DNA of 64,000 nucleotides, taken from assembly GCA_016700095.1 (NCBI GenBank), contig CP065002.1, forward strand, positions 780,175 through 844,174. The letters run 5' to 3'. A program made the position numbers and the translations under genes. This DNA is from Candidatus Woesebacteria bacterium. GTDB lineage: Bacteria; Patescibacteriota; Microgenomatia; UBA8517. Of the stretch, positions 8,847-23,332 are shown one piece after another (position 1 is the first letter of the stretch; each line of letters starts with the position of its first letter). Below the pieces are notes generated by a model. The model did no database searches and was not told where the DNA came from. It worked only from the letters and a program-made list of their open reading frames with translations.

Positions 8847-8904
8847 GTTCGAACCAACACAGGTGTCTATACAATTTTATGTAATTTCTGAAGCTAAAAA
8901 CGAA
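8847..8904 (+). repeat. Shared 58-nt segment (gttcgaaccaacac..gtctatacaatttt..gaagctaaaaacgaagcggg) that precedes the R-B or tRNA-3' element
   Basis: A second copy at 23161-23218 is about 85% identical. A partial copy (gaggctaaaaatcgaggcggg) lies at 22105-22126. Confidence 0.6.
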
Positions 8905-8951
8905 GCGGGACTTAGTGCCTGCCCGCTTTTAGAGGGAACGATGTTCGAACC
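8905..8951 (+). repeat. R-B repeat copy 1 (gcgggacttagtgcctgcccgcttttagagggaacgatgttcgaacc); left end of the 1.47-kb duplication
   Basis: The family has eight copies, long form about 47 nt. It has an internal gcggg/cccgc inverted repeat and a palindromic gttcgaac. Confidence 0.85.
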
Positions 8952-8965
8952 TATTTACATAAGTA

Positions 8966-9451
8966 TTAGCAAAAACCTCTCAGATATTTTTCGATTGTAC
9001 CTAATCCCATTTCTTTTCGAAGTCTATTTAATTTCTTCTTATCTGTTACTTGATATAATTCCCATCTATTAGTCTTTTTGTCAAATGACACTTGTGTACC
9101 ATAAATCTGCCTTTTCCCTTCATACATTAAAATTCTATCAGTTAAAAATGCTATATTTTTTAGGGCAATGTCATTTTTGTGTTTCAGCATCATTTTGAGA
9201 TAAGCTTTTTGGAATTTCAAATCGGGTGAGTGTTGTACCAAAAGCCATGCATTACACGAAGCCTTCTTGCCCACTTTTGAGATAGTTGGCAGTCCGATAT
9301 CTGCGACTATGCTCTTTAATCTTTTGGTGTTTTCTCTATCAACTTTATTTATTTTATCCCAAAGTGTTTTTGAATCTTCGCTTTCCAACTTTTTTCTCAG
9401 CTCTTGGTCAATTTTAGCCAAATCATTTATTTCAGCAGCATGCCATTTCAT
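8966..9451 (-). CDS. Hypothetical protein (161 aa), duplicated gene copy 1
   Basis: 100% identical in protein to 15399..15884. The promoter TTTTGATATACT lies 6 nt before the ATG. Confidence 0.5.
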   Translation of the reverse strand: MKWHAAEINDLAKIDQELRKKLESEDSKTLWDKINKVDRENTKRLKSIVADIGLPTISKVGKKASCNAWLLVQHSPDLKFQKAYLKMMLKHKNDIALKNIAFLTDRILMYEGKRQIYGTQVSFDKKTNRWELYQVTDKKKLNRLRKEMGLGTIEKYLRGFC

Positions 9452-9579
9452 ACTTGAAGTATATCAAAAGCAATTAAGAGCGGAACTCATCACACAAGCA
9501 ACTTGAGAGCGTAGTTGTTGTTTGCAAATAAACAGTGAGGTTTTTGTTTATCCGGCAAACAGTGCTACACTGAATAACA

Positions 9580-10244
9580 ATGAGGAAGGGCTTTGTCCAT
9601 CTTTTGACACCAATTGTTCTTGTTTTGATTGTTGTAGGTGCACTTTTTATCTTAACAGAAATAAATCTAATCCAGATAAATTAACTGATATTCAAAACGA
9701 TACTGAGATGGTTGTTGAGAAAACGGACATTGACCCACAACCCGAAACCACTACGCCAACTGGTCAAAGTGTCAAGTTACCAAAAACAGTTAAACCATCA
9801 CCAACCGCTGCACAGAACTCATCAAACAGTAATACTAACACAAAACAAAATCCAACTAGCACTAGCACCCCAGCACCTACTTCTACACAAATAATTACTA
9901 GTTCGCCAGCAACACCACCCACGACTGCCCCAAAGAATCAGATGGGATATGTATTTAGTAAAAACTCGATTGACACTGTCGTAAATAACACCGGTCAAGT
10001 GTATGGAGTACTTTCATTCACTTCTACAGGATCCACAAGTTTTCTGTTTTCAGGTACACCACAGTATCAGGGAGGCATAAATTGGCGTCCAGCCTCAGGA
10101 GCAAACTATGCAGGCCAAACAATACAACTAGAGATACAAGTGTTTAGCAACGTTCCTGAAGGTGTTTATGAAGGAACAATGACCTTTACTGACAAAACTA
10201 CGGGAATAACAAAAGATTTCTCTACGAAACTCACCGTTCTGTAG
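9580..10244 (+). pseudogene. Frameshifted copy of the Thr/Pro-rich surface-protein gene (intact copy at 16013..16678)
   Basis: The ATG at 9580 runs into a T5 tract at 9644-9648 (T6 in the intact copy), giving a stop after 34 codons. The remaining 206 codons are identical to the intact copy but in another frame. Confidence 0.6.
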
Positions 10245-10325
10245 CCAGTCTGATATTCGCACCGCAGTCGAACAAACAAGATGTAAAACCTTCCTCAAAT
10301 TTTGGCAAATCGTGAACTAAAGTTG

Positions 10326-10372
10326 GCATGGCTTAGTGCCTGTCCGCCCTTGGATGGAACGATGTTTGAAAC
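10326..10372 (+). repeat. R-B repeat copy 2 (gcatggcttagtgcctgtccgcccttggatggaacgatgtttgaaac); right end of the duplication
   Basis: Same family as copy 1 at 8905. Confidence 0.8.
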
Positions 10373-10381
10373 TGGTATTTA

Positions 10382-10984
10382 TTATCTGAGAAGTAAACTT
10401 GGAACTCTAAAACTCCATTTACTAACCCCGAATCTGCAGCTTGAAATTTTCTTTTTTGCTGATTTTAAGTCTACAAGATTTTCCAACGCTAATAAGTCAT
10501 TCATCCTTTGTGCTTCTTTAAACTTTACTATCCGTCCAATTGTATTATTTAATATTTTCTTTATTCCCCAGAGAACGTCTATATTTAATGTACTAAAAGA
10601 TACATTTTCAAAGTTAGATTTCGATAAGTACTTTGCAGGGATTTTAACCCAAATTTTAGGATACAAATCAAATTTTAATGTATCTCCCTCGTATTCAAAA
10701 TATGTAGACAATATCTCTATGGCAATACCGTCTTTCGAAAAGCGGAGATATCTCGACTTTGATTTTTTAACTAACGCTTTATAGAATGGCATTCTTTTAT
10801 CTATAAATGTACTCAACTTGAACCCAAGTCTTAACAAAGATTTTTTTACGTTCAAAACTTGTTCTTTGTCCATAATAATATCAATATCGTGTATTTGTCT
10901 TGTATAATTAATCTCATTTGTATAAGAGAGAGTTGCTACAGAACCCAATACCAAATACTTTTCTGATGGAATGTTGGAAATCAC
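10382..10984 (-). CDS. Nucleotidyltransferase-fold protein (pol-beta superfamily), unknown specificity
   Basis: LVLGSVATLSYTNEINYTRQIHDIDIIM fits the G[SG]-x(9-13)-DxD NTase signature. The cassette promoter TTTTGATATACT-N6 is followed by ATA rather than ATG. The ORF reads in frame from that ATA, and the first conventional start (GTG) is 13 codons downstream. This suggests a start-codon mutation or a GTG start. Confidence 0.4.
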   Translation of the reverse strand: MISNIPSEKYLVLGSVATLSYTNEINYTRQIHDIDIIMDKEQVLNVKKSLLRLGFKLSTFIDKRMPFYKALVKKSKSRYLRFSKDGIAIEILSTYFEYEGDTLKFDLYPKIWVKIPAKYLSKSNFENVSFSTLNIDVLWGIKKILNNTIGRIVKFKEAQRMNDLLALENLVDLKSAKKKISSCRFGVSKWSFRVPSLLLR

Positions 10985-11114
10985 TAGTTTTAAAACGTTT
11001 GCATAATCAGAGTTGTCTATTAGCGAAGTATATCAAAACTAAAGCATTGAGATAAGTTTGAGCTAGAACTAGTTATACAATAAACCATTAATTTCTGAGA
11101 CTAAAAATTGAAGC

Positions 11115-11164
11115 GGGCTAAATGCATTGTCCTGAGCATTGCCGAAGGGGGATGGGTTTAGAAC
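11115..11164 (+). repeat. R-A repeat copy 4 (gggctaaatgcattgtcctgagcattgccgaagggggatgggtttagaac)
   Basis: Followed by the conserved A-gene leader at 11165-11235. Confidence 0.8.
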
Positions 11165-11235
11165 CGGATTCGCCATTTAGACATACTACTTACCGATTTA
11201 TCTTGACCGAAAAGTTTTCATATGGGAATATGGGA

Positions 11236-11507
11236 TTATGAGTGATACAAAAATACTTCAAGCAATTCTTGATGGACAAGTTCAAATTCGTAAAGATATA
11301 AAGTATGTTGAAGAAAAACTTTCCAAAAAGATAGACGAGAATGGATCGAGAATAGATAAACTCGGATTACAGATTGCCGAGTTAGAAGATGACCTGCCCG
11401 CAATGCTAAAAGCATAGCTTCTGCAGGCGGGTGCTCCAACAATCGAGGAATTTGATGAACTGGAAAAAAGAGTAGAAAAAGTGGAAAAGAAAATCGCTTC
11501 TTTGTAA
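11236..11507 (+). pseudogene. Small coiled-coil paralog A3, disrupted by a 39-nt palindromic insertion
   Basis: Identical to A4 for 33 codons. An insertion (ctgcccgcaatgctaaaagcatagcttctgcaggcgggt) introduces a TAG codon. The C-terminal part APTIEEFDELEKRVEKVEKKIASL continues in frame with the N-terminal segment downstream of the TAG. Confidence 0.6.
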
Positions 11508-11573
11508 AAGTATTTCTTTACTTCAGATTGATAATTACAAAGTGACTTAGTGAACTATCTTAAGATCTTCCTT

Positions 11574-12401
11574 TTAATATTTCTCAAATGAAAGCGTATC
11601 AAAAAAATGTTCTAATTCAACAAACGCCGCTTCGAGTCTCATGTTTAATTCTTTCTCGTCTATATCAAAATAATCTACTTCTTTACTAAGTGTAAAAAAA
11701 ACTTGCCTATTACTTTCGCTGTTAATTGTATGAAACTCCATTCTTACGCCACATACAGACTTTGGACACGCTTTATATTTTTTGATTACATTTATACCAA
11801 CATCATTTATATATGTTTTATCAGGTGAGATGTTTTCTGGGATTCTCCAAGAAACATATTTTTCACCAGACACGAAAGGTCCACCCTCGTAGCCATCTAA
11901 AATTGGGAAATCATAATAAACACCTGAAGGTGATCTTGTGTTTAGTAATCTATTGGGCAATAGGGGAAGTTCCACTTCATTTTTACTTGGATCAATACCG
12001 ATAGTCCAACTATTAACGCTTATATTACTCTTTAAATATATTTGCCTTTTTGTAATTATTGCTCCGCTATATTTATATTCAGTTTTCTCCATACTTACAT
12101 CCACAAATTGTGGCGAATAAATTCCGAAGTCTGTGAAACTATATATTTGTTCATGAGGTTGACTCATCTCAGCAAGATTTCTAGGCATAATCGCTGATGG
12201 TTGGTTGATTGTTTGCTCATCATTGTCCCAAGGTCGTCTGGAAAATGTAGAACTTTTTAGTGTATTCTCCACTTTTTGAAGAAATATATATGAAACTAAA
12301 ACAAACGTAAATACTCCCATAGTCAATAAAATAATAGGTATCAAGTGAATATTTTTAGATTTAGACTTTGATAGCCTGAATAATTTGTTAACTTTCGGCA
12401 T
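11574..12401 (-). CDS. Hypothetical secreted/membrane-anchored protein (275 aa)
   Basis: N-terminal TM/signal (IHLIPIILLTMGVFTFVLV). TTTTGATATACT-N6-ATG promoter. Confidence 0.5.
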   Translation of the reverse strand: MPKVNKLFRLSKSKSKNIHLIPIILLTMGVFTFVLVSYIFLQKVENTLKSSTFSRRPWDNDEQTINQPSAIMPRNLAEMSQPHEQIYSFTDFGIYSPQFVDVSMEKTEYKYSGAIITKRQIYLKSNISVNSWTIGIDPSKNEVELPLLPNRLLNTRSPSGVYYDFPILDGYEGGPFVSGEKYVSWRIPENISPDKTYINDVGINVIKKYKACPKSVCGVRMEFHTINSESNRQVFFTLSKEVDYFDIDEKELNMRLEAAFVELEHFFDTLSFEKY

Positions 12402-12434
12402 TTTTATAGTATATCAAAAGCGAAAAATCATGGC

Positions 12435-12491
12435 GTGCTAAATGCCCTGCCATTCTGAAATTTCAATGTAAGGTGGGAATGAGTTTAGAAC
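12435..12491 (+). repeat. R-A repeat copy 5 (gtgctaaatgccctgccattctgaaatttcaatgtaaggtgggaatgagtttagaac)
   Basis: Followed by the A-gene leader at 12492-12563. Confidence 0.8.
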
Positions 12492-12563
12492 CGGATTCGC
12501 CATTTAGACATACTACTGCCCATTCATCTTGACCGAAAAGTTTTCATATGGGAATATGGGATT

Positions 12564-12797
12564 ATGAGTGATACAAAAATACTTCAAGCAATTCTTGATG
12601 GACAAGTTCAAATTCGTAAAGATATAAAGTATGTTGAAGAAAAACTTTCCAAAAAGATTGACAAAAATGGATCAAGAATAAATAAACTTGGATTACAGAT
12701 TGCTGAGCTAGAAGACGGTGCACCAACGGTTGACGAATTTGATCAGCTTGTCGAGAGAGTAGATAAGGTTGAGAAAAAAGTAGCTACATTTCAGTAA
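12564..12797 (+). CDS. Small coiled-coil protein, paralog A4
   Basis: 77 aa. Intact counterpart of A3. Confidence 0.6.
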   Translation: MSDTKILQAILDGQVQIRKDIKYVEEKLSKKIDKNGSRINKLGLQIAELEDGAPTVDEFDQLVERVDKVEKKVATFQ

Positions 12798-12827
12798 ACT
12801 CTAATTTATCTTTTATAAAAATCATGA

Positions 12828-12922
12828 CGGGTAAAATACCCTGCCATTCTGAAATTCTAATGAAAGATGGGGGTGAGTAAAAAACCGGTTTGGCTATATA
12901 ATCCCCACTCTTACTCACTTTT
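12828..12922 (+). repeat. Composite repeat: R-A-like fragment (gggtaaaataccctgccattctgaaattctaatgaaag) plus R-C copy 2
   Basis: The R-C part (12867-12922) is near-identical to 8141-8196 and overlaps the stop codon of the 12915..13862 gene. Confidence 0.7.
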
Positions 12923-13862
12923 TGTGTTTTATTAAAGAATGTACTTTCGATAGATCTCGACCTGGCAACATGAGAGTTAGATCATATTCACCAGCTTTTA
13001 GAGTATTAGAATTTTCAAGCAATCTATCACCATATGGTGATTTTTGTGTTTCAATTGCTACCGGTTCTGTTACACCAAGGTCAGCTAAGCCCTGTAAAAA
13101 TCCAGTGTCAACAAGCTTTACGCGACTATCACTGTTTTCCACGCATTCTGTTGTTAAAGAATTAACAGTCAAAACATTGCCTGCATATCTTTTTTCAAGA
13201 AGACCTGCAACGCTGGTTTTTATTGGACCGGGTATCTCTGGTTGACCAACGAAGTGTGGTTTTACTGTCTGCATCGGCATTCTGTATGCATGTGCTCGAC
13301 CTGCGATTAATATATGCACCCCTTCCACTTTGTTTCCGAGTATGTTTTCTACTCTAGTAATCCAATCTGCGTCTCTGTCAGTTTTTGATTTATCATCAAT
13401 AAAAACGACCTCAACACCGAGTTCGTAACACTTACTTACGAGTTGTAGCTTATAGTTGTGTCCGATAGAGTCTTTACGTAGACTATCTCTAGTTAGGTAG
13501 TCTTTTAAGGATTCTGGCATTACTCCTGTTTTGAGATAAGCTCTCAAATTTTCTGATTGGCTTTCGTCTTCTTCTAAAAAAACTGTTTTAAGGTCATGTT
13601 TTTTCGCAACACTTTCAACAAGTTCCACTTCATGCATCAGCGTTCCCTCGCCGTGATGATGTGCTTCTCCATATACAACAATTCCATTCCCGTCATGCAC
13701 ATCTATCCAATTCACAATTGCATCTGTCGGATTTTGCAGTACTTCTCTTCGGAGTGGAGGGTATGGAATTGAATTTTCTTTAGCAGTGACTAATTGTCTA
13801 ACTATTTCAGGTATTACAATTGCGTACTGAAGTTGTGGTTCTAAATCAGTTACTTCGTTCAT
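12915..13862 (-). CDS. Hypothetical protein, possibly ChaN/TraB/Tiki-like (GxxH motifs: YGEAHHHGEG, IAGRAHAY)
   Basis: 315 aa. The two His-containing glycine motifs resemble the haem-binding-uptake/Tiki superfamily. The assignment is weak. TTTTTGATATAAT-N6-ATG promoter. Confidence 0.3.
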   Translation of the reverse strand: MNEVTDLEPQLQYAIVIPEIVRQLVTAKENSIPYPPLRREVLQNPTDAIVNWIDVHDGNGIVVYGEAHHHGEGTLMHEVELVESVAKKHDLKTVFLEEDESQSENLRAYLKTGVMPESLKDYLTRDSLRKDSIGHNYKLQLVSKCYELGVEVVFIDDKSKTDRDADWITRVENILGNKVEGVHILIAGRAHAYRMPMQTVKPHFVGQPEIPGPIKTSVAGLLEKRYAGNVLTVNSLTTECVENSDSRVKLVDTGFLQGLADLGVTEPVAIETQKSPYGDRLLENSNTLKAGEYDLTLMLPGRDLSKVHSLIKHKK

Positions 13863-13884
13863 AACTAAATTATATCAAAAAGGG

Positions 13885-13931
13885 GCTGGACTTAGTGCCT
13901 GCCCGCCACTGGAGGGAACGATGTTTGAAAC
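13885..13931 (+). repeat. R-B repeat copy 3 (gctggacttagtgcctgcccgccactggagggaacgatgtttgaaac)
   Basis: Separates the ChaN-like cassette from the ahcY cassette. Confidence 0.8.
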
Positions 13932-13994
13932 TGTTATTCTTCAGTGACATACACAAGTTTTGTACAATTATAGGTAAAATGTGTAAAATACCTC

Positions 13995-15302
13995 ATGGAC
14001 TATTACGTTAAAGACATTTCACTTGCAGAAAAAGGTAAAAAGGCTGTTGAGATCTCATTGATGGACATGCCAGGTTTAGAGGAGTTGGCTAGATTGTATG
14101 AAGATAAAAAACCACTAAACGGAATTAAAATCACAGGTTGTGTAATAGTAACCTATGAAACGGCAGCATTTATACTGCTTCTAAAAAAATTAGGTGCAGA
14201 TCTCCGTTGGTGCTCAGATAATAAGTATGCCTCACTAGACGATGCCTGTGCTTTTGTTGCTTCAAAAGGTATACCTATCTTTGCAACAAGCGAACTAACA
14301 GATGAAAAATATGAGTGGTGCTTTGAACAAGCTGCTAAATTTAAAGACAAAAACGGGAATACAGTTTGGCCAGATATCACAATTGATGATGGATGCGATA
14401 TCACTCGATTCTTACACGAAAAGTACCCAGAAGCATATGAAACAATATTGGGCACTTGCGAACAGACAACCTGTGGAGTTAACGCCCATTATAATTTAAA
14501 AGGGGAAAAAAGACTGAATACGGCAGTTATAAACGTGAATGAATCTGTTACTAAATCTAAGTTCGACAATATCTATGGAAGTAGAGAGTCGTTAATTGAG
14601 GGTCTTCAGTCAAGTATAAATTTACAGATTGGCGGAAAAAAGACTGTAATTTATGGATATGGTGAAGTAGGAAAAGGGTGTGCAAAAGTACTTCGAGGTT
14701 TGGGGGCAAACGTTCACATCGTGGAAATTGATCCCATAATTGCCATGCAGGCATATATGGAAGGTTTTAGTGTAGTAAATAGAAACGAGGCTGCTGAGAT
14801 TGGAGAGATATTCGTGACCGCAACAGGATGTGTTAAGACAGTTGCAAGAGAAGATCTTCAAAAAATGAATGACGGAGCTGTACTTATGAATATGGGTCAT
14901 GGAAATATGGAAATAGATACAGATTACCTTCTTCGATCTAGGGAACATATTGTCGAAAAAATAAGCGATAATTTACAAAAGATAACGTTAAGTCCAGACA
15001 AACGACTTTATTTACTTGCGGAGGGGTATTTAGTAAACCTCGTTGGTGGTGACGGGCATCCACCAAGAGTAATGAGTATTACATATACCAATCATATTCT
15101 TGCAATATTGGATTTATTAGGTAACAAAGGGAAATATAAAAAGGGAGAAATATATCGTTTACCAAGAGAATTAGACGAGAAGGCAGCCAGACTCAACTTC
15201 CCTGGCATTAGTGGCAAGTTGACTATACTTACTGACGAACAGGAAAAGTATCTCGGCGTTAAGAAAACAGGACCTTATAAACGAGAAGATTACAGATACT
15301 AA
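13995..15302 (+). CDS. ahcY: Adenosylhomocysteinase (S-adenosyl-L-homocysteine hydrolase)
   Basis: Full-length match to the AHCY architecture. The NAD-binding motif GYGEVGKGCA and the substrate domain (KPLNGIKITGC) are present. Confidence 0.9.
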   Translation: MDYYVKDISLAEKGKKAVEISLMDMPGLEELARLYEDKKPLNGIKITGCVIVTYETAAFILLLKKLGADLRWCSDNKYASLDDACAFVASKGIPIFATSELTDEKYEWCFEQAAKFKDKNGNTVWPDITIDDGCDITRFLHEKYPEAYETILGTCEQTTCGVNAHYNLKGEKRLNTAVINVNESVTKSKFDNIYGSRESLIEGLQSSINLQIGGKKTVIYGYGEVGKGCAKVLRGLGANVHIVEIDPIIAMQAYMEGFSVVNRNEAAEIGEIFVTATGCVKTVAREDLQKMNDGAVLMNMGHGNMEIDTDYLLRSREHIVEKISDNLQKITLSPDKRLYLLAEGYLVNLVGGDGHPPRVMSITYTNHILAILDLLGNKGKYKKGEIYRLPRELDEKAARLNFPGISGKLTILTDEQEKYLGVKKTGPYKREDYRY

Positions 15303-15337
15303 TACAAGACAATAAAAAGTTCGTAATTATGACCTTT

Positions 15338-15384
15338 GCGGGACTTAGTGCCTGCCCGCTTTTAGAGGGAACGATGTTCGAACC
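15338..15384 (+). repeat. R-B repeat copy 4; left end of duplication copy 2 (15338-16811)
   Basis: Identical to copy 1 at 8905. Confidence 0.85.
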
Positions 15385-15398
15385 TATTTACATAAGTA

Positions 15399-15884
15399 TT
15401 AGCAAAAACCTCTCAGATATTTTTCGATTGTACCTAATCCCATTTCTTTTCGAAGTCTATTTAATTTCTTCTTATCTGTTACTTGATATAATTCCCATCT
15501 ATTAGTCTTTTTGTCAAATGACACTTGTGTACCATAAATCTGCCTTTTCCCTTCATACATTAAAATTCTATCAGTTAAAAATGCTATATTTTTTAGGGCA
15601 ATGTCATTTTTGTGTTTCAGCATCATTTTGAGATAAGCTTTTTGGAATTTCAAATCGGGTGAGTGTTGTACCAAAAGCCATGCATTACACGAAGCCTTCT
15701 TGCCCACTTTTGAGATAGTTGGCAGTCCGATATCTGCGACTATGCTCTTTAATCTTTTGGTGTTTTCTCTATCAACTTTATTTATTTTATCCCAAAGTGT
15801 TTTTGAATCTTCGCTTTCCAACTTTTTTCTCAGCTCTTGGTCAATTTTAGCCAAATCATTTATTTCAGCAGCATGCCATTTCAT
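15399..15884 (-). CDS. Hypothetical protein (161 aa), duplicated gene copy 2
   Basis: Identical to 8966..9451. Confidence 0.5.
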   Translation of the reverse strand: MKWHAAEINDLAKIDQELRKKLESEDSKTLWDKINKVDRENTKRLKSIVADIGLPTISKVGKKASCNAWLLVQHSPDLKFQKAYLKMMLKHKNDIALKNIAFLTDRILMYEGKRQIYGTQVSFDKKTNRWELYQVTDKKKLNRLRKEMGLGTIEKYLRGFC

Positions 15885-16012
15885 ACTTGAAGTATATCAA
15901 AAGCAATTAAGAGCGGAACTCATCACACAAGCAACTTGAGAGCGTAGTTGTTGTTTGCAAATAAACAGTGAGGTTTTTGTTTATCCGGCAAACAGTGCTA
16001 CACTGAATAACA

Positions 16013-16678
16013 ATGAGGAAGGGCTTTGTCCATCTTTTGACACCAATTGTTCTTGTTTTGATTGTTGTAGGTGCACTTTTTTATCTTAACAGAAATAAAT
16101 CTAATCCAGATAAATTAACTGATATTCAAAACGATACTGAGATGGTTGTTGAGAAAACGGACATTGACCCACAACCCGAAACCACTACGCCAACTGGTCA
16201 AAGTGTCAAGTTACCAAAAACAGTTAAACCATCACCAACCGCTGCACAGAACTCATCAAACAGTAATACTAACACAAAACAAAATCCAACTAGCACTAGC
16301 ACCCCAGCACCTACTTCTACACAAATAATTACTAGTTCGCCAGCAACACCACCCACGACTGCCCCAAAGAATCAGATGGGATATGTATTTAGTAAAAACT
16401 CGATTGACACTGTCGTAAATAACACCGGTCAAGTGTATGGAGTACTTTCATTCACTTCTACAGGATCCACAAGTTTTCTGTTTTCAGGTACACCACAGTA
16501 TCAGGGAGGCATAAATTGGCGTCCAGCCTCAGGAGCAAACTATGCAGGCCAAACAATACAACTAGAGATACAAGTGTTTAGCAACGTTCCTGAAGGTGTT
16601 TATGAAGGAACAATGACCTTTACTGACAAAACTACGGGAATAACAAAAGATTTCTCTACGAAACTCACCGTTCTGTAG
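16013..16678 (+). CDS. Thr/Pro/Ser-rich cell-surface protein (N-terminal TM anchor, low-complexity stalk, about 100-aa C-terminal globular domain)
   Basis: MRKGFVHLLTPIVLVLIVVGALF forms the anchor. The linker is of the form TTTPTGQSV...PATPPTTAPK. The intact copy has T6 at 16077-16082. Confidence 0.55.
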   Translation: MRKGFVHLLTPIVLVLIVVGALFYLNRNKSNPDKLTDIQNDTEMVVEKTDIDPQPETTTPTGQSVKLPKTVKPSPTAAQNSSNSNTNTKQNPTSTSTPAPTSTQIITSSPATPPTTAPKNQMGYVFSKNSIDTVVNNTGQVYGVLSFTSTGSTSFLFSGTPQYQGGINWRPASGANYAGQTIQLEIQVFSNVPEGVYEGTMTFTDKTTGITKDFSTKLTVL

Positions 16679-16759
16679 CCAGTCTGATATTCGCACCGCA
16701 GTCGAACAAACAAGATGTAAAACCTTCCTCATATTTTGGCAAATCGTGAACTAAAGTTG

Positions 16760-16806
16760 GCATGGCTTAGTGCCTGTCCGCCTTTGGATGGAACGATGTT
16801 TGAAAC
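16760..16806 (+). repeat. R-B repeat copy 5 (right end of duplication copy 2)
   Basis: Same family as 10326-10372. Confidence 0.8.
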
Positions 16807-16820
16807 TGGTATGTCCAGAA

Positions 16821-17084: not shown

Positions 17085-17321
17085 ACTAATTCCGAAGTAG
17101 AATGAGCTGCAATAGAAATAATACCAAAACAGAACATGAACAGGTAGAATGCACGTATAACTTTTAATAACTTATCAATAGCATTTTCAGAGAGTTTCAT
17201 AACTCGTATTTCGTATATCAAGAATAATTGGTCCCAACAAGATATACATTCCTGAGACTAATAATCGAAACAGGCTTTAGTAGATCAGATTGATAACCTT
17301 TATTTTTTGCCATACCTAAAT

Positions 17322-18029: not shown

Positions 18030-18074
18030 ATTTTCTTTATTTGGTACTATAAAATAGAAGATAAAAAATCTTAG

Positions 18075-18120
18075 CGGGACTTAGTGGATGCCCGCCTCTG
18101 GAGGGAACGATGTTCGAACC
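18075..18120 (+). repeat. R-B repeat copy 6 (gcgggacttagtggatgcccgcctctggagggaacgatgttcgaacc)
   Basis: Same family as 8905-8951. Confidence 0.8.
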
Positions 18121-18156
18121 TGTTTTATGTGAATTAATACACAGCAAAAAAAAGCT

Positions 18157-18891
18157 TCATTTCTTTTCAAACACAAGCATTTGAGATAAAGTTACATTCT
18201 TTTCTTTTAGCTTTTGGTGTTTTTCGTAAGCTTCTGTTAAATACTTACTCGGTTTCATGTTAATCTGATTTTTAAGAATGAATCCATTTTTATTAGCAGA
18301 GTCGATATATGCTTTTGGATCTCTTACAATGTCAGCTATGGTCCCTGTCTTTCTGTAAGCTCTGATTATAAAAGTGTTATATTTATCACCCTTTAGATAT
18401 TCAATGTCTTTTCTCACACCTTCTTTGGGTCGTTTAGCATATTCAGGATCCGAAATAATTGCGATAAACATTCCACCACTTTTTAGATATTCTGAGATCT
18501 TCTCAAACGCACCATCTAAATCTTCAACGTGGGTCAAAACATAAAGTGCAATAGCAGTATCAAAAGATTCTTTCTCGGGATAAAAAAAATCTTGTAAACT
18601 AGATTCTATTAACTCAATATCAAAATTTTCTTTAGCTAGCTTTACGTTGTTTGATGAAGGATCAAAACCAACAGCCTCTCTTGCCCCCTTTTCTTTTACA
18701 TATTTAACTAACCACCCACTGCCAGCACCTATGTCTAAAACTGTTTTGTCTTTCCATTTGGGGTGTACTTTTTCAATCCAATAAAGAAAATGTTTTCGGT
18801 GGGGATCATCTAGACCTTTCACTCCTTCATATTTAACATCCTTGCGATCATACTGCTTAGGGTCAGTGGCAATATTCAACAACTTTGTCAT
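18157..18891 (-). CDS. Class I SAM-dependent methyltransferase (small-molecule type)
   Basis: Motif I (VLDIGAGSGWL), motif II (AVGFDPS) and post-I residues are present. TTCTGATATAAT-N6-ATG promoter. Confidence 0.7.
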   Translation of the reverse strand: MTKLLNIATDPKQYDRKDVKYEGVKGLDDPHRKHFLYWIEKVHPKWKDKTVLDIGAGSGWLVKYVKEKGAREAVGFDPSSNNVKLAKENFDIELIESSLQDFFYPEKESFDTAIALYVLTHVEDLDGAFEKISEYLKSGGMFIAIISDPEYAKRPKEGVRKDIEYLKGDKYNTFIIRAYRKTGTIADIVRDPKAYIDSANKNGFILKNQINMKPSKYLTEAYEKHQKLKEKNVTLSQMLVFEKK

Positions 18892-18925
18892 GAATAAATT
18901 ATATCAGAAGTAAAAAATCGTGGCA

Positions 18926-18974
18926 GGCTAAATGCATTGTCCTGAGCATTGCCGAAGGGGGATGAGTTTAGAAC
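18926..18974 (+). repeat. R-A repeat copy 8 (ggctaaatgcattgtcctgagcattgccgaagggggatgagtttagaac)
   Basis: Upstream of the methyltransferase start. No A gene is attached. Confidence 0.8.
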
Positions 18975-19060
18975 TTCACACTTTATTTAATCCTTGTATT
19001 ATTTCACCTTTACTATCATATTAAATATAGAATTAGGGTATATAGTAAATAGGAATTAAT

Positions 19061-20341
19061 ATGAAAAAAGTATTAAGTAGTTTTTTTGTAATCGGTATTA
19101 TTGGGATATTAGTCGTTTATTCAACAAATGCTTTCTTCAGTGACACAGAAACTTCAAAAGGTAATGTGTTTGAGGCGGGAAAGGTGGATTTACTTGTCGG
19201 TAGTGAATGTACGTATAATGGACAGGCTTCAACGGAGTGTGGCACATGGGACTCAACTAATTTAGCGCTCGAGAAATTATTCAATTTTTCCGATATCAAA
19301 CCAGGTGATTACGGAGAAAACACTATAAATCTAAGAGTAGAAGATAATCCGTCTTGGCTGTGTATGGCAATTGTTTCAACCTCAAATGATGATACGAGTT
19401 CGACTGAACCTGAATTGCAGGAATTGGGAGAAACTCAGGAAGATGCAGCTAATCTCTGGGATGGTGAATTAAGGCAAAATATGACCTTCCATGTTTGGGC
19501 TGATGTTTGCGATTTATTTCCTGCAGTTCCCGGAGATAATATTTATAAAGAAGACTGTGATGAGAATATAACTGAAAACGTAAATAATGAATCAGCGACT
19601 TTTGCACTTGCCGATAGTACAAGCAACATCTTTACTGGAATATCTGGTCAATCTTTAAACGGAAATGAGAGCTATTATTTAGGATTTGGATGGTCATTAC
19701 CGAGTGATGTTGGGAACATTGCACAAACAGATAGTTTCACAGCAAACATTTCGTTTTACGCAGAACAAGAAAGAAATAATGCTAGTTTTATATGCCCTAA
19801 TTCTTCAGTAGTGTTCTCAGGTGATTTTAATGACGGCAACATAGACAACTGGGAAATCATTGGTTCACATAAAGTACATTCTGATCTAGGTAGCTGGAGA
19901 GTTGAAAATGGAGAATTGCTTCAAACCAACGGAGGTGATGGGTATATGATTTTTGCCGATAACCTTAACTTAAGTACACAAACACTTGAAGTAGATATGA
20001 AGCACAATGATCCTGCTGGATATGGCGGTTTTGTTATTTGGTTTCAAGATTATGACAACCTAATTTATATAAGAATGTATCCTGGTTATGCAGAAATATG
20101 GGTAGAACAATGGGAGAATGGAGTCTCAAGTGTAACCAAGTATCCATATTTGTCAGCCTATTCCACTTGGTACACTTTTAAAACCTTTGCTGATAGTGAT
20201 AGTGGAAATATAGATGTTTATGTAAATGGAGTAAAATTGTTTACTCATCATGCTACGACAACCAAACGCGATGGCAAGTCTGGATTAATGAATGGAAATA
20301 GTGGAAGCTTTTTTGATAATTTTAGATTAACGGCGAATTAA
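19061..20341 (+). CDS. TasA/camelysin (CalY)-like secreted protein with SipW-cognate-class signal peptide and a C-terminal lectin/LamG-like domain
   Basis: The N-terminus (...STNAFFSDTETSKGNVFEAGKVDL, then NFSDIKPGDYGENTINL) parallels B. subtilis TasA (TWAAFNDIKSKDATFASGTLDL...NLKPGDKLTKDFQF). A classic RBS (AGGA) precedes it, unlike its neighbours. Confidence 0.55.
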   Translation: MKKVLSSFFVIGIIGILVVYSTNAFFSDTETSKGNVFEAGKVDLLVGSECTYNGQASTECGTWDSTNLALEKLFNFSDIKPGDYGENTINLRVEDNPSWLCMAIVSTSNDDTSSTEPELQELGETQEDAANLWDGELRQNMTFHVWADVCDLFPAVPGDNIYKEDCDENITENVNNESATFALADSTSNIFTGISGQSLNGNESYYLGFGWSLPSDVGNIAQTDSFTANISFYAEQERNNASFICPNSSVVFSGDFNDGNIDNWEIIGSHKVHSDLGSWRVENGELLQTNGGDGYMIFADNLNLSTQTLEVDMKHNDPAGYGGFVIWFQDYDNLIYIRMYPGYAEIWVEQWENGVSSVTKYPYLSAYSTWYTFKTFADSDSGNIDVYVNGVKLFTHHATTTKRDGKSGLMNGNSGSFFDNFRLTAN

Positions 20342-20380
20342 ACCATAACTTGGGAACTGTAAAAAAATCCAACTTCCCAA

Positions 20381-20800
20381 TCACTGTTTCTTATTCTTCG
20401 ATCCTTTATAGTAGTAATAAGCTAAACCACTCGTAAGAAGCGCTGTATATACCCAACCAGAGTCATCATTAGTATCATCGTCAGCTTCTTGATTATAGTT
20501 ATTTTCAGAGTCCGAAATTAAGTTATTATATTGATTGTAGTTTTGTTTGGGAGTAGAAGTAACGTAAACAGGCTTTGAAGTTGGTACCCTTGTTGGCATT
20601 TTTGTAGGATAAACATATACAGGCGCTGAGCAATTAGGATAATATGGAGCACATGTACTAGATAATGATGTCCCATCGCAACATCCACAACCACACACTC
20701 CGCCATGGTGAGAACAGCAACCCGAGCGAGCATTAATATAATCTGTTGACAATAAAAATAAGAAGAGAACAATGGCAGGTATATAAAATATATACCGCAT
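20381..20800 (-). CDS. Cys-rich secreted protein with C-terminal TM anchor (CCSHHGGVCGCGCCDG motif)
   Basis: Signal peptide, a 12-Cys cluster, a Pro/Thr/Tyr-rich stalk, and a C-terminal hydrophobic helix followed by KNKKQ. Confidence 0.4.
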   Translation of the reverse strand: MRYIFYIPAIVLFLFLLSTDYINARSGCCSHHGGVCGCGCCDGTSLSSTCAPYYPNCSAPVYVYPTKMPTRVPTSKPVYVTSTPKQNYNQYNNLISDSENNYNQEADDDTNDDSGWVYTALLTSGLAYYYYKGSKNKKQ

Positions 20801-20924
20801 AATTTAATTTAGTTGTTATTTGGCTCTTTATACTACTAATTAGTGACAAAGTAAAATGCTGATACCATCGGTTAATAACGAGATTTGTGAATATGAAGTT
20901 TGTGGATTATGCTATTGAAGCAAT

Positions 20925-21449
20925 CTAATCAATAAACTCTAATATTTTACCCACCAACACATTCCTATCCCACAATTCCACTCCATTAACTCGTGCTAAT
21001 CTTTTAGCTTGACGTGTAAAATAACTATTTGTCACAACCATTGCTCCATTACACTTATACATTTTGATTGATCCTAGCGCTTCTCTAACTGCATCCACAC
21101 CAATATATGACTTATGCCGTTTTACTTGAACAGCAATAGTTTTTCCATTCTTTGAAACAATTAAATCAGCACCATAATCACCGTGATATGAACCTACATG
21201 TCTTACTGAATATCCCATATTCCTAAACAAATTAGTTAGGTATTCTTCGAATGCCTGACCATCCATTTTGTCAATCTCATTCATTCCTGCCTTCGATAAT
21301 CTTTTTAGTTTGTATATTTTGTAGACAATTCTTACCACCAGAGATACAAACAAAAATACCCAAATCGGCCAAGTAATTTTCAATGCATTGGGGATACTGG
21401 CAAGAAATGATTCAAGAAGCATCGAAGGCATATCAATTTCAGATGTCAT
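20925..21449 (-). CDS. Membrane-anchored Mrr-cat (restriction-endonuclease-like, PD-(D/E)xK) domain protein
   Basis: FEEYLTNLFRNMGYSVRHVGSYHGDYGADLIVSKNGKTIAVQVKRHK matches the Mrr N-terminal nuclease-domain signature (D...D/E.K). It is preceded by a TM helix (ITWPIWVFLFVSLVVRIVY). TATAAT-N6-ATG promoter. Confidence 0.65.
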   Translation of the reverse strand: MTSEIDMPSMLLESFLASIPNALKITWPIWVFLFVSLVVRIVYKIYKLKRLSKAGMNEIDKMDGQAFEEYLTNLFRNMGYSVRHVGSYHGDYGADLIVSKNGKTIAVQVKRHKSYIGVDAVREALGSIKMYKCNGAMVVTNSYFTRQAKRLARVNGVELWDRNVLVGKILEFID

Positions 21450-21498
21450 TACATTATTATAGCTATTAATCCAACACCCGAATACGACAAAAGGTGTG

Positions 21499-21515
21499 CG
21501 GGGTAGACGGGACTT
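21499..21515 (+). repeat. tRNA-Asp 3'-end fragment copy (gcggggtagacgggact), att-like
   Basis: Identical to the 3' 17 nt of the tRNA-Asp gene at 24654-24670. It heads a roughly 100-nt module that contains a hairpin and ends in the R-B short form at 21597-21624. Confidence 0.75.
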
Positions 21516-21596
21516 AGTTCGACAAGCTCACTCTAAACTTCTCGTCCCGATCTATAAAACAAAAAACCTCACACTTTGGTAAGGATTTTCTTGTTT

Positions 21597-21624
21597 GCGG
21601 GACTTAGTGAACGAAGTTCGAACC
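21597..21624 (+). repeat. R-B repeat copy 7, short form (gcgggacttagtgaacgaagttcgaacc)
   Basis: Lacks the 19-nt internal cctgcccgc...ggg segment of the long form. Confidence 0.7.
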
Positions 21625-21626
21625 TA

Positions 21627-22064
21627 TTATTTGTACAGAGAAAACTTACCTGTAAATTCTCTAAGTTCTTCAGTTGACCCAAACAAAACGATTCCGTAAT
21701 ATTCAAGATCTTCTTCTGGTGTTTCACTTGTTGCATTTTGCTGTTCCTGTGATGTTCCTATTGTCATGGTACTGGTAAAGTCAGAAAAGGGAATATTTCT
21801 TTCAATTGCCTCTTTTCTTACTTTTCTGATTTTATTGGAGTTATCAGCTTTTAATACAATGAATGGGTAGTGTGAAATGTTTGGATGTGTACCGCCATCC
21901 TTATCCCTGTATTGCAGAAAGTACATCTCACTATTTTTTCCAGACCCACCAGCCAATCCAGCTGTTATGTGTCCGAGTGCATTAAGTAGTTTACCCGTTT
22001 CTACTTTTTTATTAAGAATAGCCATAAAGCGCTTAGAATTTTCATCTGGAAGACTTTCTGTCAT
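21627..22064 (-). CDS. Hypothetical protein, possibly DUF2000-like
   Basis: The pattern KRFMAILNKKVETGKLLNALGHITAGLA...DGGTHPNIS...YYGIVLFGSTEEL resembles my recollection of DUF2000, with low certainty. The likely start is the ATG at 22064 (TGTATAAT-N6-ATG), not the TTG at 22079. Confidence 0.3.
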   Translation of the reverse strand: MTESLPDENSKRFMAILNKKVETGKLLNALGHITAGLAGGSGKNSEMYFLQYRDKDGGTHPNISHYPFIVLKADNSNKIRKVRKEAIERNIPFSDFTSTMTIGTSQEQQNATSETPEEDLEYYGIVLFGSTEELREFTGKFSLYK

Positions 22065-22123
22065 AGTTGGATTATACAAGAATATGCTGATATCACAAAC
22101 AACAATTGAGGCTAAAAATCGAG

Positions 22124-22151
22124 GCGGGACTTAGTGAACGATGTTCGAACC
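22124..22151 (+). repeat. R-B repeat copy 8, short form (gcgggacttagtgaacgatgttcgaacc)
   Basis: Preceded by gaggctaaaaatcgag, a partial copy of the 58-nt shared segment. Confidence 0.7.
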
Positions 22152-22157
22152 TATTAT

Positions 22158-23141
22158 TTAAACAACTGCTGCTTCTAGAAATGCCATCGTTAGCTTTTCG
22201 CTATCTATTGAAGTTTTTATTCCGATAGGCATCGGAAGTTGAACCATCTTATGACCAAAGTCGACATCCGCGAGAATAGGAAAATTATATTCATTTGTGC
22301 ATCTTAAGACAATTTCTTTAAAGGAAGGTTCAGTCATTCCATTTATTGATGTCTGTTTCATGTCAACTAACTTACCCACCAACATACCAGATATTACGTC
22401 GAATAGCCCAACGTATTTTAGATGTGTTAATACTCGTTCAACTCTATATGAAGGTGAGTTATCCAACTCCCAAAAGAAAATAGAATCTCTAAGTGAAGAA
22501 ATTGTTGGAAAATATTCCGTACCCATAAGTGAGTCTATCATACTCAAATTGCCTCCAAAGAGGAGTCCTTCAGCTTTTCCTGACCTCCAACTGTGCCATT
22601 TAGTTAGTCGTTTTACCTCCCCGATAGCAGTGTCTGATGTGAGAACCTGCTTAAAGTAAGTTGAACCTTTATCTTTATTGTTCGGTGCAAATTGGTTCCA
22701 TACCCATCCTAACTCATACGAAAGCAAACCCATATGAAAACCCACTAAATTAGCTTTGGTGTAAAAAGCACTGTGAATATTGGTCATATTACTAAAACCA
22801 ATAAATGGTTTGGGGTTTTTCTTAACTAATTCGTAATCTAAATGCTCTAGTACAGTGATGCAATCATTTCCGCCGTCATGAGCAATAACAGCTTTAACTT
22901 CTGGATCTGCATACATAGCATTTATATCATCTGCTCTTTCCTGTGGGGAACCTGCCCTCCACCATTCTCTTTTCCTTAGGTTTTTTGATTCCTTTAATCT
23001 AAAACCCATATTTTCGATCTCTTTTCGTCCAAGCATATATTGTTCCAGATATTCTTTATTATCGTTATTGGGGAACGGATGGGCTGGAGCAACTACACCA
23101 ATCGTATCTCCAGCATTTAGTTTTGGTGGTTTAAGTGCCAT
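22158..23141 (-). CDS. LD-carboxypeptidase (peptidase S66; LdcA/MccF-like)
   Basis: LKPPKLNAGDTIGVVAPAHP... followed by a downstream Ser/His/Glu-containing core typical of S66. The likely start is the ATG at 23141 (TTTGATTATACT-N6-ATG) rather than the GTG at 23174. Confidence 0.7.
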   Translation of the reverse strand: MALKPPKLNAGDTIGVVAPAHPFPNNDNKEYLEQYMLGRKEIENMGFRLKESKNLRKREWWRAGSPQERADDINAMYADPEVKAVIAHDGGNDCITVLEHLDYELVKKNPKPFIGFSNMTNIHSAFYTKANLVGFHMGLLSYELGWVWNQFAPNNKDKGSTYFKQVLTSDTAIGEVKRLTKWHSWRSGKAEGLLFGGNLSMIDSLMGTEYFPTISSLRDSIFFWELDNSPSYRVERVLTHLKYVGLFDVISGMLVGKLVDMKQTSINGMTEPSFKEIVLRCTNEYNFPILADVDFGHKMVQLPMPIGIKTSIDSEKLTMAFLEAAVV

Positions 23142-23218
23142 ATAGTTAGTATAATCAAAGGTTCGAACCAACACTACTGTCTATACAATTTTGGTTAATC
23201 ATTGAAGCTAAAAACGAA

Positions 23219-23332
23219 GCGGGGTAGACGGGACTTGGTTCGACAAGCTCACTATAAACTTCTCGTCCCGATCCATAAAACAAAAAACCTCACACTTTGG
23301 TGAGGATTTTCGTTTGCGGGGTAGACGGGACT
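23219..23332 (+). repeat. att-like module: tRNA-Asp 3' fragment, then 80-nt spacer with hairpin (cctcacactttggtgagg), then a second tRNA-Asp 3' fragment
   Basis: gcggggtagacgggact at 23219-23235 and again at 23316-23332. The spacer is about 90% identical to 24570-24653 and 21516-21596. Confidence 0.75.

Follow-up and report, generated by a model that had tools for sequence, protein, structure and literature searches.

The DNA analysed here is a 64-kb stretch (the window) from the 1.27-Mb genome of a Candidatus Woesebacteria bacterium, in which an array of small cassettes adjoins a tRNA-Asp(GTC) gene on its 3' side. The tRNA gene, from which we take the island to have been seeded, occupies 24653..24728 on the minus strand (ARAGORN; Rfam tRNA, 68 bits). 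Running leftward from the tRNA 3' end, the island covers about 6.1 kb to 24.73 kb and, at about 18 kb, makes up about 1.4 % of the genome. About 20 units of 0.08-3.5 kb, most of them with a single gene, follow one another head to tail, and the repeats at the junctions between them all point in one direction. Domain assignments agree with the cassette gene list of the first-pass annotation: the units encode a DUF6624 protein together with a surface protein, nucleotidyltransferases, an AdoHcyase, a methyltransferase, a TasA-like protein with a camelysin-type signal peptide, Mrr, a DUF2000 protein (21627-22079, minus strand) and an LD-carboxypeptidase (22158-23174, minus strand). Nearer the tRNA, the ORF list and a core search define a unit at 23333..24553, delimited by the tRNA-derived cores F1 and F0 (see below), which carries a plus-strand gene for a membrane protein of 216 aa (23494-24144). 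Short-read contigs from the same sample (L001, L002, L095, L096) match the window at 100 % identity and end at repeat branch points.

Many of the junctions are occupied by a short element, R-B, for which eight copies, six long and two short, had been proposed; pattern search, alignment and a repeat finder (families D5 and D15) all bore out this number. The long form has about 47 nt, and the short form, of 28 nt, lacks an internal 19 nt. Allowing up to 3 mismatches, the 5' half GCGGGACTTAGTGCCTGCCCGC matched at 8905, 13885, 15338 and 18074, and the 3' half GGGAACGATGTTCGAACC at 8934, 10355, 13914, 15367, 16789, 18103, 21607 and 22134, on the plus strand only, where shuffled sequences are expected to give 0.00 and 0.03 matches, respectively. 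The long copies lie at 8905..8951, at 10326..10372 (a variant, GCATGGCT...GTTTGAAAC), at 13885..13931 between a minus-strand ORF of 315 aa and the divergent plus-strand ahcY, from 15338 onward, at 16760..16806 where the duplicated cassette described below has its right end, and at 18074..18120; the short copies are at 21597..21624, with the DUF2000 gene next to it, and at 22124..22151 (GCGGGACTTAGTGAACGATGTTCGAACC), downstream of the LD-carboxypeptidase gene. All eight positions are as previously listed, except that the sixth copy begins at 18074 and not at 18075. A GCGGG/CCCGC inverted repeat had also been ascribed to the element; it is intact in the copies at 8905, 15338 and 18074 and broken in the other three of the six long copies.

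The family is larger than these eight. Seven diverged members between 6741 and 18974, named after repeat-finder families D9 and D10, are present on the plus strand: four of D9 type at 6741-6803, 8097-8160, 12430-12492 and 12824-12886 (families D9 and D13), and three of D10 type (GCAGGCTAAATGC...GAGTTTAGAAC) at 7126-7177, 11113-11164 and 18923-18974. They bracket each of the four copies of a small coiled-coil gene of 70-77 aa, at 6875..7093 (plus strand), 7862-8074, 11238-11417 (truncated) and 12564-12797. Across the 64-kb window, the R-B/D9/D10 profile gave 17 matches from 6724 to 22160, all on the plus strand, and the motif GTTYRRAAC on the plus strand is likewise confined to the island within the window except for one copy at 162. 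Given these additional members and the copies of the tRNA-Asp 3' end described below, the island spans about 6.1-24.73 kb rather than the 8.8-23.3 kb assigned earlier (8847-23332). A possible degenerate element at 6084..6138 (plus strand, GACGGGCAAAATGCCGC...), weak and missed by the profile search, marks its approximate left limit.

The junction repeats derive from the tRNA. The last 17 nt of tRNA-Asp, read on the plus strand as GCGGGGTAGACGGGACT at 24653-24669, recur four times beyond the gene, also on the plus strand: exactly at 21498..21514 (F3), 23219..23235 (F2) and 23316..23332 (F1), and with 2 mismatches at 24554..24570 (F0, CCTGGGTAGACGGGACT). The 3'-end string GCGGGGTAGACGGGACTTAG quoted in the first-pass annotation is present at 21498-21517. 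Around these cores lie two further repeated sequences. One, S, is the native tRNA-Asp trailer at 24571..24652, with a terminator-like hairpin at 24620-24643, and it is found again at 23236-23315 and 21515-21596 (family D8, plus strand; 90-93 % mutual identity). The other, the T arm (GGTTCGAACC ... TGAAGCTAAAAACGAA), lies on the plus strand at 23160..23218 and, directly before an R-B, at 8847-8904 (family D12), with a diverged copy at 22069-22123. A shared 58-nt segment had been described before two R-B copies; it is complete before 8905 and diverged before 22124. The core is an intact 17 nt near the tRNA and is reduced in R-B to the 8-nt GCGGGACT by a 9-nt deletion, such that R-B starts as the tRNA-Asp 3'-end string minus GTAGACGGG. 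The junction of the S trailer with GCGGG at 21597 is identical to that at the tRNA itself, and the earlier suggestion that the 5' end of R-B is a tRNA-Asp 3' end with 9 nt deleted is thereby established. Among the three exact cores there are 0 differences at 51 sites, whereas the adjacent S copies differ by 9-10 % (P ~0.005 in a rough test that assumes independent sites).

The sequences that flank the cores form a small and conserved set: on the left, the T arm or S; on the right, the R-B arm ending in GTTCGAACC or the start of S. These arms are reassorted, with breakpoints at the core edges. The cores at 8905 and 23219 share one left flank, and those at 21597, 23316 and the tRNA share the other, while on the right all R-B copies form one group and 21498, 23219 and 24554 form the second. 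F2 joins the T arm to the start of S, F1 joins S to unique sequence, and F3 is followed by TAGTTCGAC, the start of S. Furthermore, a unit of R-B, DUF6624 gene, surface-protein gene and R-B is present twice, at 8905-10378 and 15338..16812 (plus strand; families D3 and D4), with 3 differences in 1,474 nt (99.8 % identity). The duplication, a recent one, runs from the first base of one R-B to 6 nt beyond the next. Exchange of arms exactly at the core and this R-B-bounded duplication uphold the view that R-B marks places of past DNA recombination. Since the duplicated unit contains both bounding R-Bs in their entirety, it reveals no single crossover point, and homologous recombination between the repeats fits the duplication as well as site-specific recombination does.

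Being short, intergenic, present in multiple copies of a long and a short form, and furnished with a small palindrome, R-B could be taken for a MITE- or REP-like non-autonomous element inserted into the intergenic spacers of the region, an alternative that the first-pass annotation had raised. We consider this very improbable. All 17 of 17 profile matches have the same orientation (two-sided chance ~1.5e-5) and fall in one island, no terminal inverted repeats or target-site duplications were seen at the duplicated unit, the folds of the elements are not significant, and the tRNA trailer runs directly into the 5' end of R-B. The exact R-B pattern had no match in the GTDB species representatives or the JGI metagenomes and was not above chance in IMG/VR.

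The folds were assessed for single-strand RNA and DNA, and gave z-scores between -1.85 and +1.3 against shuffles, none of them significant. Rfam covariance models returned only tRNAs above threshold and nothing overlapping the elements, even when E values up to 5 were admitted, and we infer that R-B elements are not structured RNAs. They probably also carry promoter-proximal sequence of the next gene. One could go further and propose that the elements are intergenic expression modules, each an upstream terminator with the promoter of the next gene, repeated solely through duplication of cassettes within the island and playing no part in recombination. Of the eight R-B copies, seven lie 10-37 nt past the stop codon of a minus-strand ORF, and on that strand TTCGTTTTTAGC comes after the GCGGG/CCCGC stem. 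Many start codons in the island have a promoter-like motif directly upstream, AGTATATCARAAG (family D11; on the gene strand, TGnTATACT), which seldom occurs outside the island, and one D10 copy overlaps a promoter-like site with 10/12 consensus matches. However, a terminator scan flagged only the S hairpins and never R-B, and the folds are not significant. The orientation of R-B also stays constant where the genes around it do not: the copy at 13885 lies between divergent genes, and those at 10326 and 15338 lie between convergent genes and are antisense to one. Considering that the proposal leaves the tRNA-derived core and the reassortment of arms unexplained, we regard it as improbable.

The same locus was compared in related Woesebacteria, which are distant, with orthologous proteins 38-59 % identical. 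The flanks are kept (LysM, tRNA-Gly, tRNA-Thr, Big-domain and Wzy genes) and the 3' side of tRNA-Asp varies between them, so the comparison of sister loci called for earlier does reveal differing gene content, though among distant relatives. L073 has an empty site with only about 350 nt after tRNA-Asp, and L083 has a core fragment followed by an S-like trailer. L098 and L099, collinear at 99.5 % identity, hold four other small genes in about 3 kb, together with repeats that all run in one direction (GCGGGCTCTGGTG...CGGAAC). L060 and L070 have a full core with the T motif and R-B-like arms attached. The order of T motif GARGCTAA, GCGGG(A)CT, TGGWGG and GGAAC is found again in L060, L070 and L098, and a variant of the series adjoins tRNA-Trp in L014-L019.

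No recombinase or integrase domain was detected in ORFs of at least 150 aa across the 64-kb window or in the smaller ORFs scanned in the island and its left flank, and precomputed gene annotations with a few Pfam scans gave no recombinase at the related loci. The attC-like or XerC/D-like structure attributed to R-B found no support: the element folds no better than shuffles, GTTRRRY is unmatched and no 11-6-11 site is present. For an integron attC, the R-B 3' ends (GTTCGAA, GTTTGAA or GTTTAGA) do not give GTTRRRY, there is no complementary 5' box (RYYYAAC), and neither RNA nor DNA folds yield the single-strand hairpin when set against shuffles. No IntI integrase was found next to the array in the window. 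A CALIN, a cluster of attC sites lacking an integrase, does not require IntI with attI and Pc. As for a Xer/dif site, conservation stops about 6 nt after GAACC, there is no conservation of a second arm, and every site has the same direct orientation.

These results bear on a bolder reading, that R-B is the attC analogue of an active integron-like cassette platform, composed of T motif, core and arm, in which an unlinked recombinase conserved in Woesebacteria captures, excises and reshuffles single-gene cassettes with their own promoters at R-B itself as well as at the tRNA. The truncated core in 15/15 elements implies spread as R-B, the units mostly have one gene with one orientation for all sites, and the very recent duplication has R-B at its bounds. 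The motif order recurs in lineages with 38-59 % protein identity, including the tRNA-Trp variant, and non-coding sequence is unlikely to be kept that long unless functional or mobile. On the other hand, this similarity across lineages rests on short motifs, the scanned ORFs hold no recombinase, the elements form no stable single-strand hairpin and their ends do not fit RYYYAAC / GTTRRRY. Neither a single crossover point nor excision products or presence/absence variants were seen, and L098 and L099 are collinear. We therefore hold such a platform to be unlikely. Equally tentative is its extension, by which Woesebacteria, and perhaps other candidate-phyla-radiation bacteria, might possess a chromosomal cassette platform analogous but unrelated to integrons, with sites in tRNA T-arms and 3' ends, shared arms and an unlinked conserved recombinase through which single genes would be captured, duplicated and shuffled. 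It is similarly doubtful whether that platform would use tRNA-Asp here and possibly tRNA-Trp elsewhere, with arms bearing GARGCTAA and a GGAAC/CGAAC end and genes with leaderless-type promoters.

Of the known systems, the Dehalococcoides ssrA islands, with their cis-mobilizable elements, and tycheposon islands come closest to the array. Small, mostly one-gene cassettes, same-orientation repeats of 50-120 nt, length variants and, as in CALINs, no nearby integrase recall integron arrays, but here the RYYYAAC / GTTRRRY boxes and a stable folded strand are absent, the repeat is tRNA-derived, and the cassettes bring a promoter-like motif of their own, with genes in mixed orientation. In Acinetobacter plasmids, pdif modules are also one- to few-gene units bounded by short recombination sites and served by an unlinked host recombinase; their sites are 28-bp XerC-6-XerD sequences in alternating orientation. 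No XerC-6-XerD site is recognisable here, and all elements are chromosomal and in direct orientation. The tandem ssrA islands of Dehalococcoides insert in the T-loop, have 20-bp copies of the 3' end of ssrA as their boundary repeats, with a conserved motif next to these, and include 15 that carry no integration module (PMC3146451). Our array likewise lies downstream of a tRNA-like gene, with 3'-end direct repeats (17 nt here, 20 bp there), an extra conserved motif by the repeat, an identity block that begins inside the T-loop, many units without integration genes, and strain-specific content between kept flanks. It differs in that its units are 10-50 times smaller and mostly single-gene, with no integrase in the window, at most junctions the core is truncated to 8 nt and its conserved arms are long, the tRNA trailer is present three times as a unit, and the host, with its 1.27-Mb genome, belongs to the candidate phyla radiation. 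Tycheposon islands of Prochlorococcus contain scattered partial tRNAs that separate elements and remnants, newer insertions displacing older ones, and tycheposons are several kb long with a tyrosine recombinase and replication genes (bioRxiv 10.1101/2020.12.28.424599). They share with our locus a streamlined genome, a tRNA-adjacent island and partial tRNA copies between elements, but the array here has none of the hallmark genes, and the tRNA end is present in its repeats in a derived form.

Set against tRNA islands in general, the locus has a tRNA gene directly at the array, direct repeats of its 3' end (three exact, one with 2 mismatches, and eight R-B copies minus 9 nt) and content that differs between kept flanks in distant relatives (L073, L083, L098/L099); no integrase was found among the units in the 64-kb window or at the related loci inspected. 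The array belongs to a known type of genomic island, of which it is a miniature version without an integrase. We favour, with some reserve, the reading that it is a tRNA-Asp integration hotspot, built up as integrase-less mini-islands inserted one after another in a site-specific manner and accreted. The array would have grown by repeated site-specific recombination in the tRNA T-loop/3' end, through an integrase that may be encoded elsewhere or may have been lost. Younger units would have pushed older ones outward as cis-mobilizable mini-islands accreted, and later recombination between junction repeats may have duplicated and shuffled them. R-B elements would then be derived junction sites of this accretion, still guiding rearrangements. 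The core in D9 and D10 elements is more decayed than the 8-nt core of R-B, and all 15 R-B/D9/D10 elements have it truncated; they are therefore not each an independent insertion into an intact tRNA, and must have spread in the truncated form by duplication or mutual recombination. This shared truncation counts against accretion, as do the integrase-less window, the distance of the relatives compared and a distribution known for 64 kb of 1.27 Mb. Of the cassette-capture system at tRNA-Asp-derived sites first suggested, the tRNA origin, recombination at R-B and variable content stand, and the attC/Xer-like structure does not.

How genes are gained and lost in candidate-phyla-radiation bacteria is poorly understood, since their genomes are tiny and few mobile elements have been recognised in them. 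Since short-read contigs end at the junction repeats, islands of this kind may be under-represented in short-read metagenome-assembled genomes. Several Woesebacteria lineages have members of this junction-sequence family at the same tRNA. If these junctions still recombined, they would provide a compact route of gene flux in candidate-phyla-radiation bacteria, as well as a handle for recombinase discovery and for reading strain-level variation in metagenomes.

The first-pass annotation had placed eight copies of R-B, a repeat of about 47 nt, between small gene units, and these copies were borne out by our searches, with matches far above shuffle expectation. Searching the window with the 5' half of R-B (three or fewer mismatches) gave matches at 8905, 13885, 15338 and 18074, and the 3' half gave eight matches, which correspond to copies starting at 8905, 10326, 13885, 15338, 16760, 18074, 21597 and 22124; all were on the + strand, and the numbers expected from shuffles were 0.00 and 0.03, respectively. 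Based on the alignment and the repeat finder, six copies are long (~47 nt) and two are short (28 nt), the latter being without the internal 19 nt. The annotated list of cassette genes likewise agrees with the ORFs and Pfam matches. Since Logan short-read contigs from the same sample (SRR11674018) are 100 % identical to the window, ending where the repeat copies diverge, a long-read assembly artefact was ruled out. When the contexts of the cassette proteins were compared among other assemblies, same-sample contigs alone were recovered and no other arrangement was seen.

The sequence derives from a 1,274,238-bp contig of a Candidatus Woesebacteria bacterium (locus tags IPM62_040xx), and in G+C content the island hardly differs from the adjoining DNA. 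The DNA on the island's right side carries tRNA-Asp (24653-24728, minus strand), the gene of a LysM protein, tRNA-Gly, tRNA-Thr, genes of the cell envelope, IleRS and the dcw cell-division cluster. Within this cluster, a 769-aa ORF (56323-58632) is a fusion of a three-domain Mur ligase with a C-terminal nucleotidyltransferase domain. In the island itself, the S-adenosylhomocysteine hydrolase gene (13995-15302) is the lone gene between two R-B elements, and this housekeeping-type enzyme is unusual as island cargo.

To trace the 5' end of R-B, we compared its junctions with the 17-nt 3' end of tRNA-Asp, denoted as the core, which reads GCGGGGTAGACGGGACT on the + strand. At the tRNA gene, the trailer ...TTTCTTGTTT directly abuts GCGGGGTAGACGGGACT, and at 21597 the same trailer end abuts GCGGGACT, the 8-nt form of the core. 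Similarly, a segment whose end is ...GAAGCTAAAAACGAA lies directly against the full core at 23219 and against GCGGGACT at 8905, and the bases next after GCGGGACT in R-B (TAGT) are those after the full core at 21498. Because the trailer and T-segment junctions as well as TAGT match full-core sites, the earlier derivation of the R-B 5' end from the tRNA-Asp end by loss of 9 nt is correct; the lost bases are GTAGACGGG, between two CGGG repeats. In a relative (L060), a full 17-nt core is joined to an R-B-like arm (...CTTTGGTGGACGAAG...GGGAAC), and therefore the arm predates the 9-nt deletion. The R-B 3' arm TGGAGGGAAcgatgtTCGAACC (18099-18120 and 13910-13931) resembles, with 6 extra bases, a Woesebacteria tRNA-Trp at its 3' end, read in antisense (TGGAGGGAATCGAACC); the tRNA compared is that of another lineage (L014, 5579-5650). 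On this likeness, R-B may be a composite of two tRNA ends.

The repeat finder, together with a scan for motifs and a profile search, brought in seven further members that are diverged but laid out and oriented like R-B; we named them D9 and D10 after their repeat-finder families. D9 elements lie at 6741-6803, 8097-8160, 12430-12492 and 12824-12886, and D10 elements at 7126-7177, 11113-11164 and 18923-18974, all on the + strand. The profile matches in the window, between 6724 and 22160, were on the + strand in 17 of 17 cases. Exact extra copies of GCGGGGTAGACGGGACT are present at 21498, 23219 and 23316, and a copy with two mismatches at 24554. When all junctions are counted, the island (~6.1 to 24.7 kb) consists of about 20 chained units, most of which hold a single gene.

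Against all fetched loci, the profile built from the 15 elements matched same-sample copies only, and the elements of relatives are recognisable through short motifs only. The exact R-B pattern had no match in GTDB species representatives or in JGI metagenomes, nor did the 33-nt tRNA-Asp 3' half in GTDB species representatives. In IMG/VR, the 3' motif had 13 matches, fewer than a rough chance estimate; the core match (L027) sits in a high-GC coding region and was attributed to chance, and the matches to the T-arm pattern, the segment left of some cores, are ordinary antisense tRNA genes of giant viruses. Further core matches (L051, L063 and L080) are coding sequence of an unrelated organism.

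We then scored the arms of all 13 core-bearing sites, over 60 nt on the left side and 45 nt on the right. The left flanks fall into T (8905 and 23219), S (21597, 23316 and the tRNA) and a remainder of unique sequences, where T starts with GGTTCGAACC and ends with GAAGCTAAAAACGAA, and S is the 80-82-nt tRNA trailer including its hairpin. The right flanks form five groups, among them the R-B arm, the start of S (21498, 23219 and 24554), the tRNA body and unique sequence. Among the pairings of a left with a right arm, T occurs with R-B and with the start of S, and S occurs with R-B, with unique sequence and with the tRNA; the breakpoints are exactly at the core edges. Such reassortment is the pattern expected from partner exchange at the core; for example, a circle carrying T-core-RB that inserted into S-core-tRNA would give S-core-RB as a predicted product. 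ARAGORN found no pseudo-tRNA re-formed by the T arm and R-B arm in ten joined constructs, and such re-formation stays speculation.

The three full cores show 0 differences in 51 sites, while the neighbouring three S copies differ by 7-10 % (P ~0.005 in a rough test that assumes independent sites). Since the cores are invariant beside diverged S copies, they are maintained or repeatedly renewed. The diverged elements also show partner swapping: the cassette start CGGATTCGCCATTTAGAC... follows D10 at 11164 and D9 at 6802 and 12491, and the left part of D10 stands before three different sequences. Furthermore, 8905-10378 is identical to 15338-16812 except for 3 differences in 1,474 nt, and the identity runs from the first base of one R-B to 6 nt beyond the next. 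This R-B-bounded duplication is recent, and because the copy contains both bounding R-Bs, it is accounted for equally well by homologous recombination between repeats and by a site-specific event. The two copies of the surface-protein gene differ by one base in a T run: copy 1 (9644) has a TTG start, a different N-terminus and 240 aa, and copy 2 (16077), which is matched by a same-sample short-read contig (L001), has a signal-like N-terminus and 221 aa. The one-base difference would reflect a frameshift or else a homopolymer error in the long reads.

The first-pass annotation had read R-B as a tRNA-derived recombinogenic boundary with attC- or Xer-like structure, or alternatively as a MITE; the boundary reading stood, and the others did not. 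The ends of R-B do not fit the attC boxes RYYYAAC / GTTRRRY and its folds are not significant, conservation ends ~6 nt past GAACC in disagreement with a Xer/dif-like site, and a MITE is unlikely given one orientation, one island, no terminal inverted repeats and no target-site duplications. None of the ORFs scanned in the 64 kb showed a recombinase domain, and for the unannotated ORFs this held up to E = 1. We regard an integron-like active platform as less likely, though possible. A known RNA family was rejected (no Rfam overlap with the elements at the gathering threshold or at E up to 5), as was a structured element (z from -1.85 to +1.3 in RNA and DNA folds of 18 sequences) and a terminator, with the scan flagging the S hairpins only and never R-B. 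Neighbouring genes do not set the orientation, which is constant although R-B 13885 lies between divergent genes and R-B 10326 and 15338 between convergent ones. A Prochlorococcus origin and a named Prochlorococcus repeat were both excluded by the host, Candidatus Woesebacteria.

Sister loci were taken from distant relatives, whose orthologous proteins are 38-59 % identical. The gene order LysM, tRNA-Gly, tRNA-Thr, Big-domain protein and Wzy is kept in L073, L083 and L098/L099. On the tRNA-Asp 3' side, L073 has ~350 nt and then LysM, effectively an empty site, and in L083 a partial tRNA-Asp end, with an S-like trailer behind it, adjoins core genes including Obg. In L098/L099 (RIFCSPHIGHO2_01_FULL_38_26-like), ~3 kb between PolX and tRNA-Asp hold four unrelated small genes, which encode MazG and three proteins of 92, 145 and 204 aa. 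Repeats GCGGGCTCTGGTG...CGGAACTTCT, all in the same direction, separate these genes, and one of the repeats has CTGAGGCTAA, the T motif, before it. L070 contains two elements 1 kb apart, each with the T motif, the core and TAGYTAGAACC. In another lineage (L014-L019), five same-direction repeats at the tRNA-Trp 3' side begin ...CAGCAGCCCTGGATGGAA, the antisense tRNA-Trp end being ...CAGCAGGGGTGGAGGGAA, and one is preceded by GGTTCGAACC, ~33 nt and GAAGCTAAAA, as in the T arm; the likeness of this array to the R-B family is suggestive only. No integrase was seen in L070, L073, L083, L098/L099 or L014-L019.

In this genome (24653-24728) and in L098, tRNA-Asp is directed away from LysM, tRNA-Gly and tRNA-Thr, and in L073 and, judged from the core fragment, L083 it has the same direction as these; therefore the tRNA, with the island where present, was inverted in some lineages. 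In L014, 21 nt of the tRNA-Trp 5' end recur ~300 nt away (5631-5651 and 5938-5958), bracketing a small GIY-YIG endonuclease gene, an arrangement that looks like a separate insertion at the tRNA-Trp 5' side.

A conserved coiled-coil protein of 70-86 aa (MSDTKILQAILDGQ...RIDKLGLQIA.LEDDAPT), with a central segment of variable length, is encoded at 6875-7093, 7862-8074, 11238-11417 and 12564-12797 in the island, and its gene is also multi-copy in the tRNA-Trp-linked array (four copies each in L014, L015 and L016). In the AlphaFold model (mean pLDDT 89) the protein forms two helices; it belongs to no confident family in Pfam, PHROG or PADLOC and has neither a phage match nor a fold match. Among island proteins, PADLOC gave domain-level matches only, to the Mrr nuclease and the methyltransferase. 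In another Woesebacteria contig (L020, 848-1385), a homologue of this gene has beside it a HEPN and nucleotidyltransferase pair as well as a C39 peptidase flanked by two ATP-grasp ligases, and this accessory content is similar to that of the island.

Many minus-strand island genes share a promoter-like motif, AGTATATCARAAG, which reads TGnTATACT in the sense of the gene and lies no more than ~10 nt from the start codon, at 6711-6739, 8826-8846, 9449-9477, 12399-12427, 15882-15910, 18889-18917 and 23141-23160. This shared motif points to an extended -10 promoter used in common and to leaderless transcripts; in the window outside the island it is rare. The junctions probably also serve to express the gene that follows.

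Integrases targeting the T-loop or 3' end of tRNA genes are established. Taken all together, the island is best read as a hotspot for integration into the T-loop/3' end of tRNA-Asp, which probably grew by serial site-specific insertion and accretion of small integrase-less units, with later rearrangement by recombination between junction repeats. The truncated core is common to all 15 R-B, D9 and D10 elements, which therefore spread as the truncated form, and R-B may still be a recombination substrate for some enzyme. The closest published cases are the ssrA islands of Dehalococcoides and the tycheposon islands. In the former, 20 bp of the ssrA 3' end are repeated next to a conserved motif, insertion is in the T-loop, and 15 islands that lack an integration module were read by the authors as cis-mobilizable elements (PMC3146451); in the latter, partial tRNAs are scattered among elements and remnants (bioRxiv 10.1101/2020.12.28.424599). 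The island described here is unusual in its very small units, the complete absence of integration genes, the truncated core in all 15 elements and the long arms conserved across lineages. It is a miniature version of an already recognised class of genomic island, in a phylum that has been little studied.
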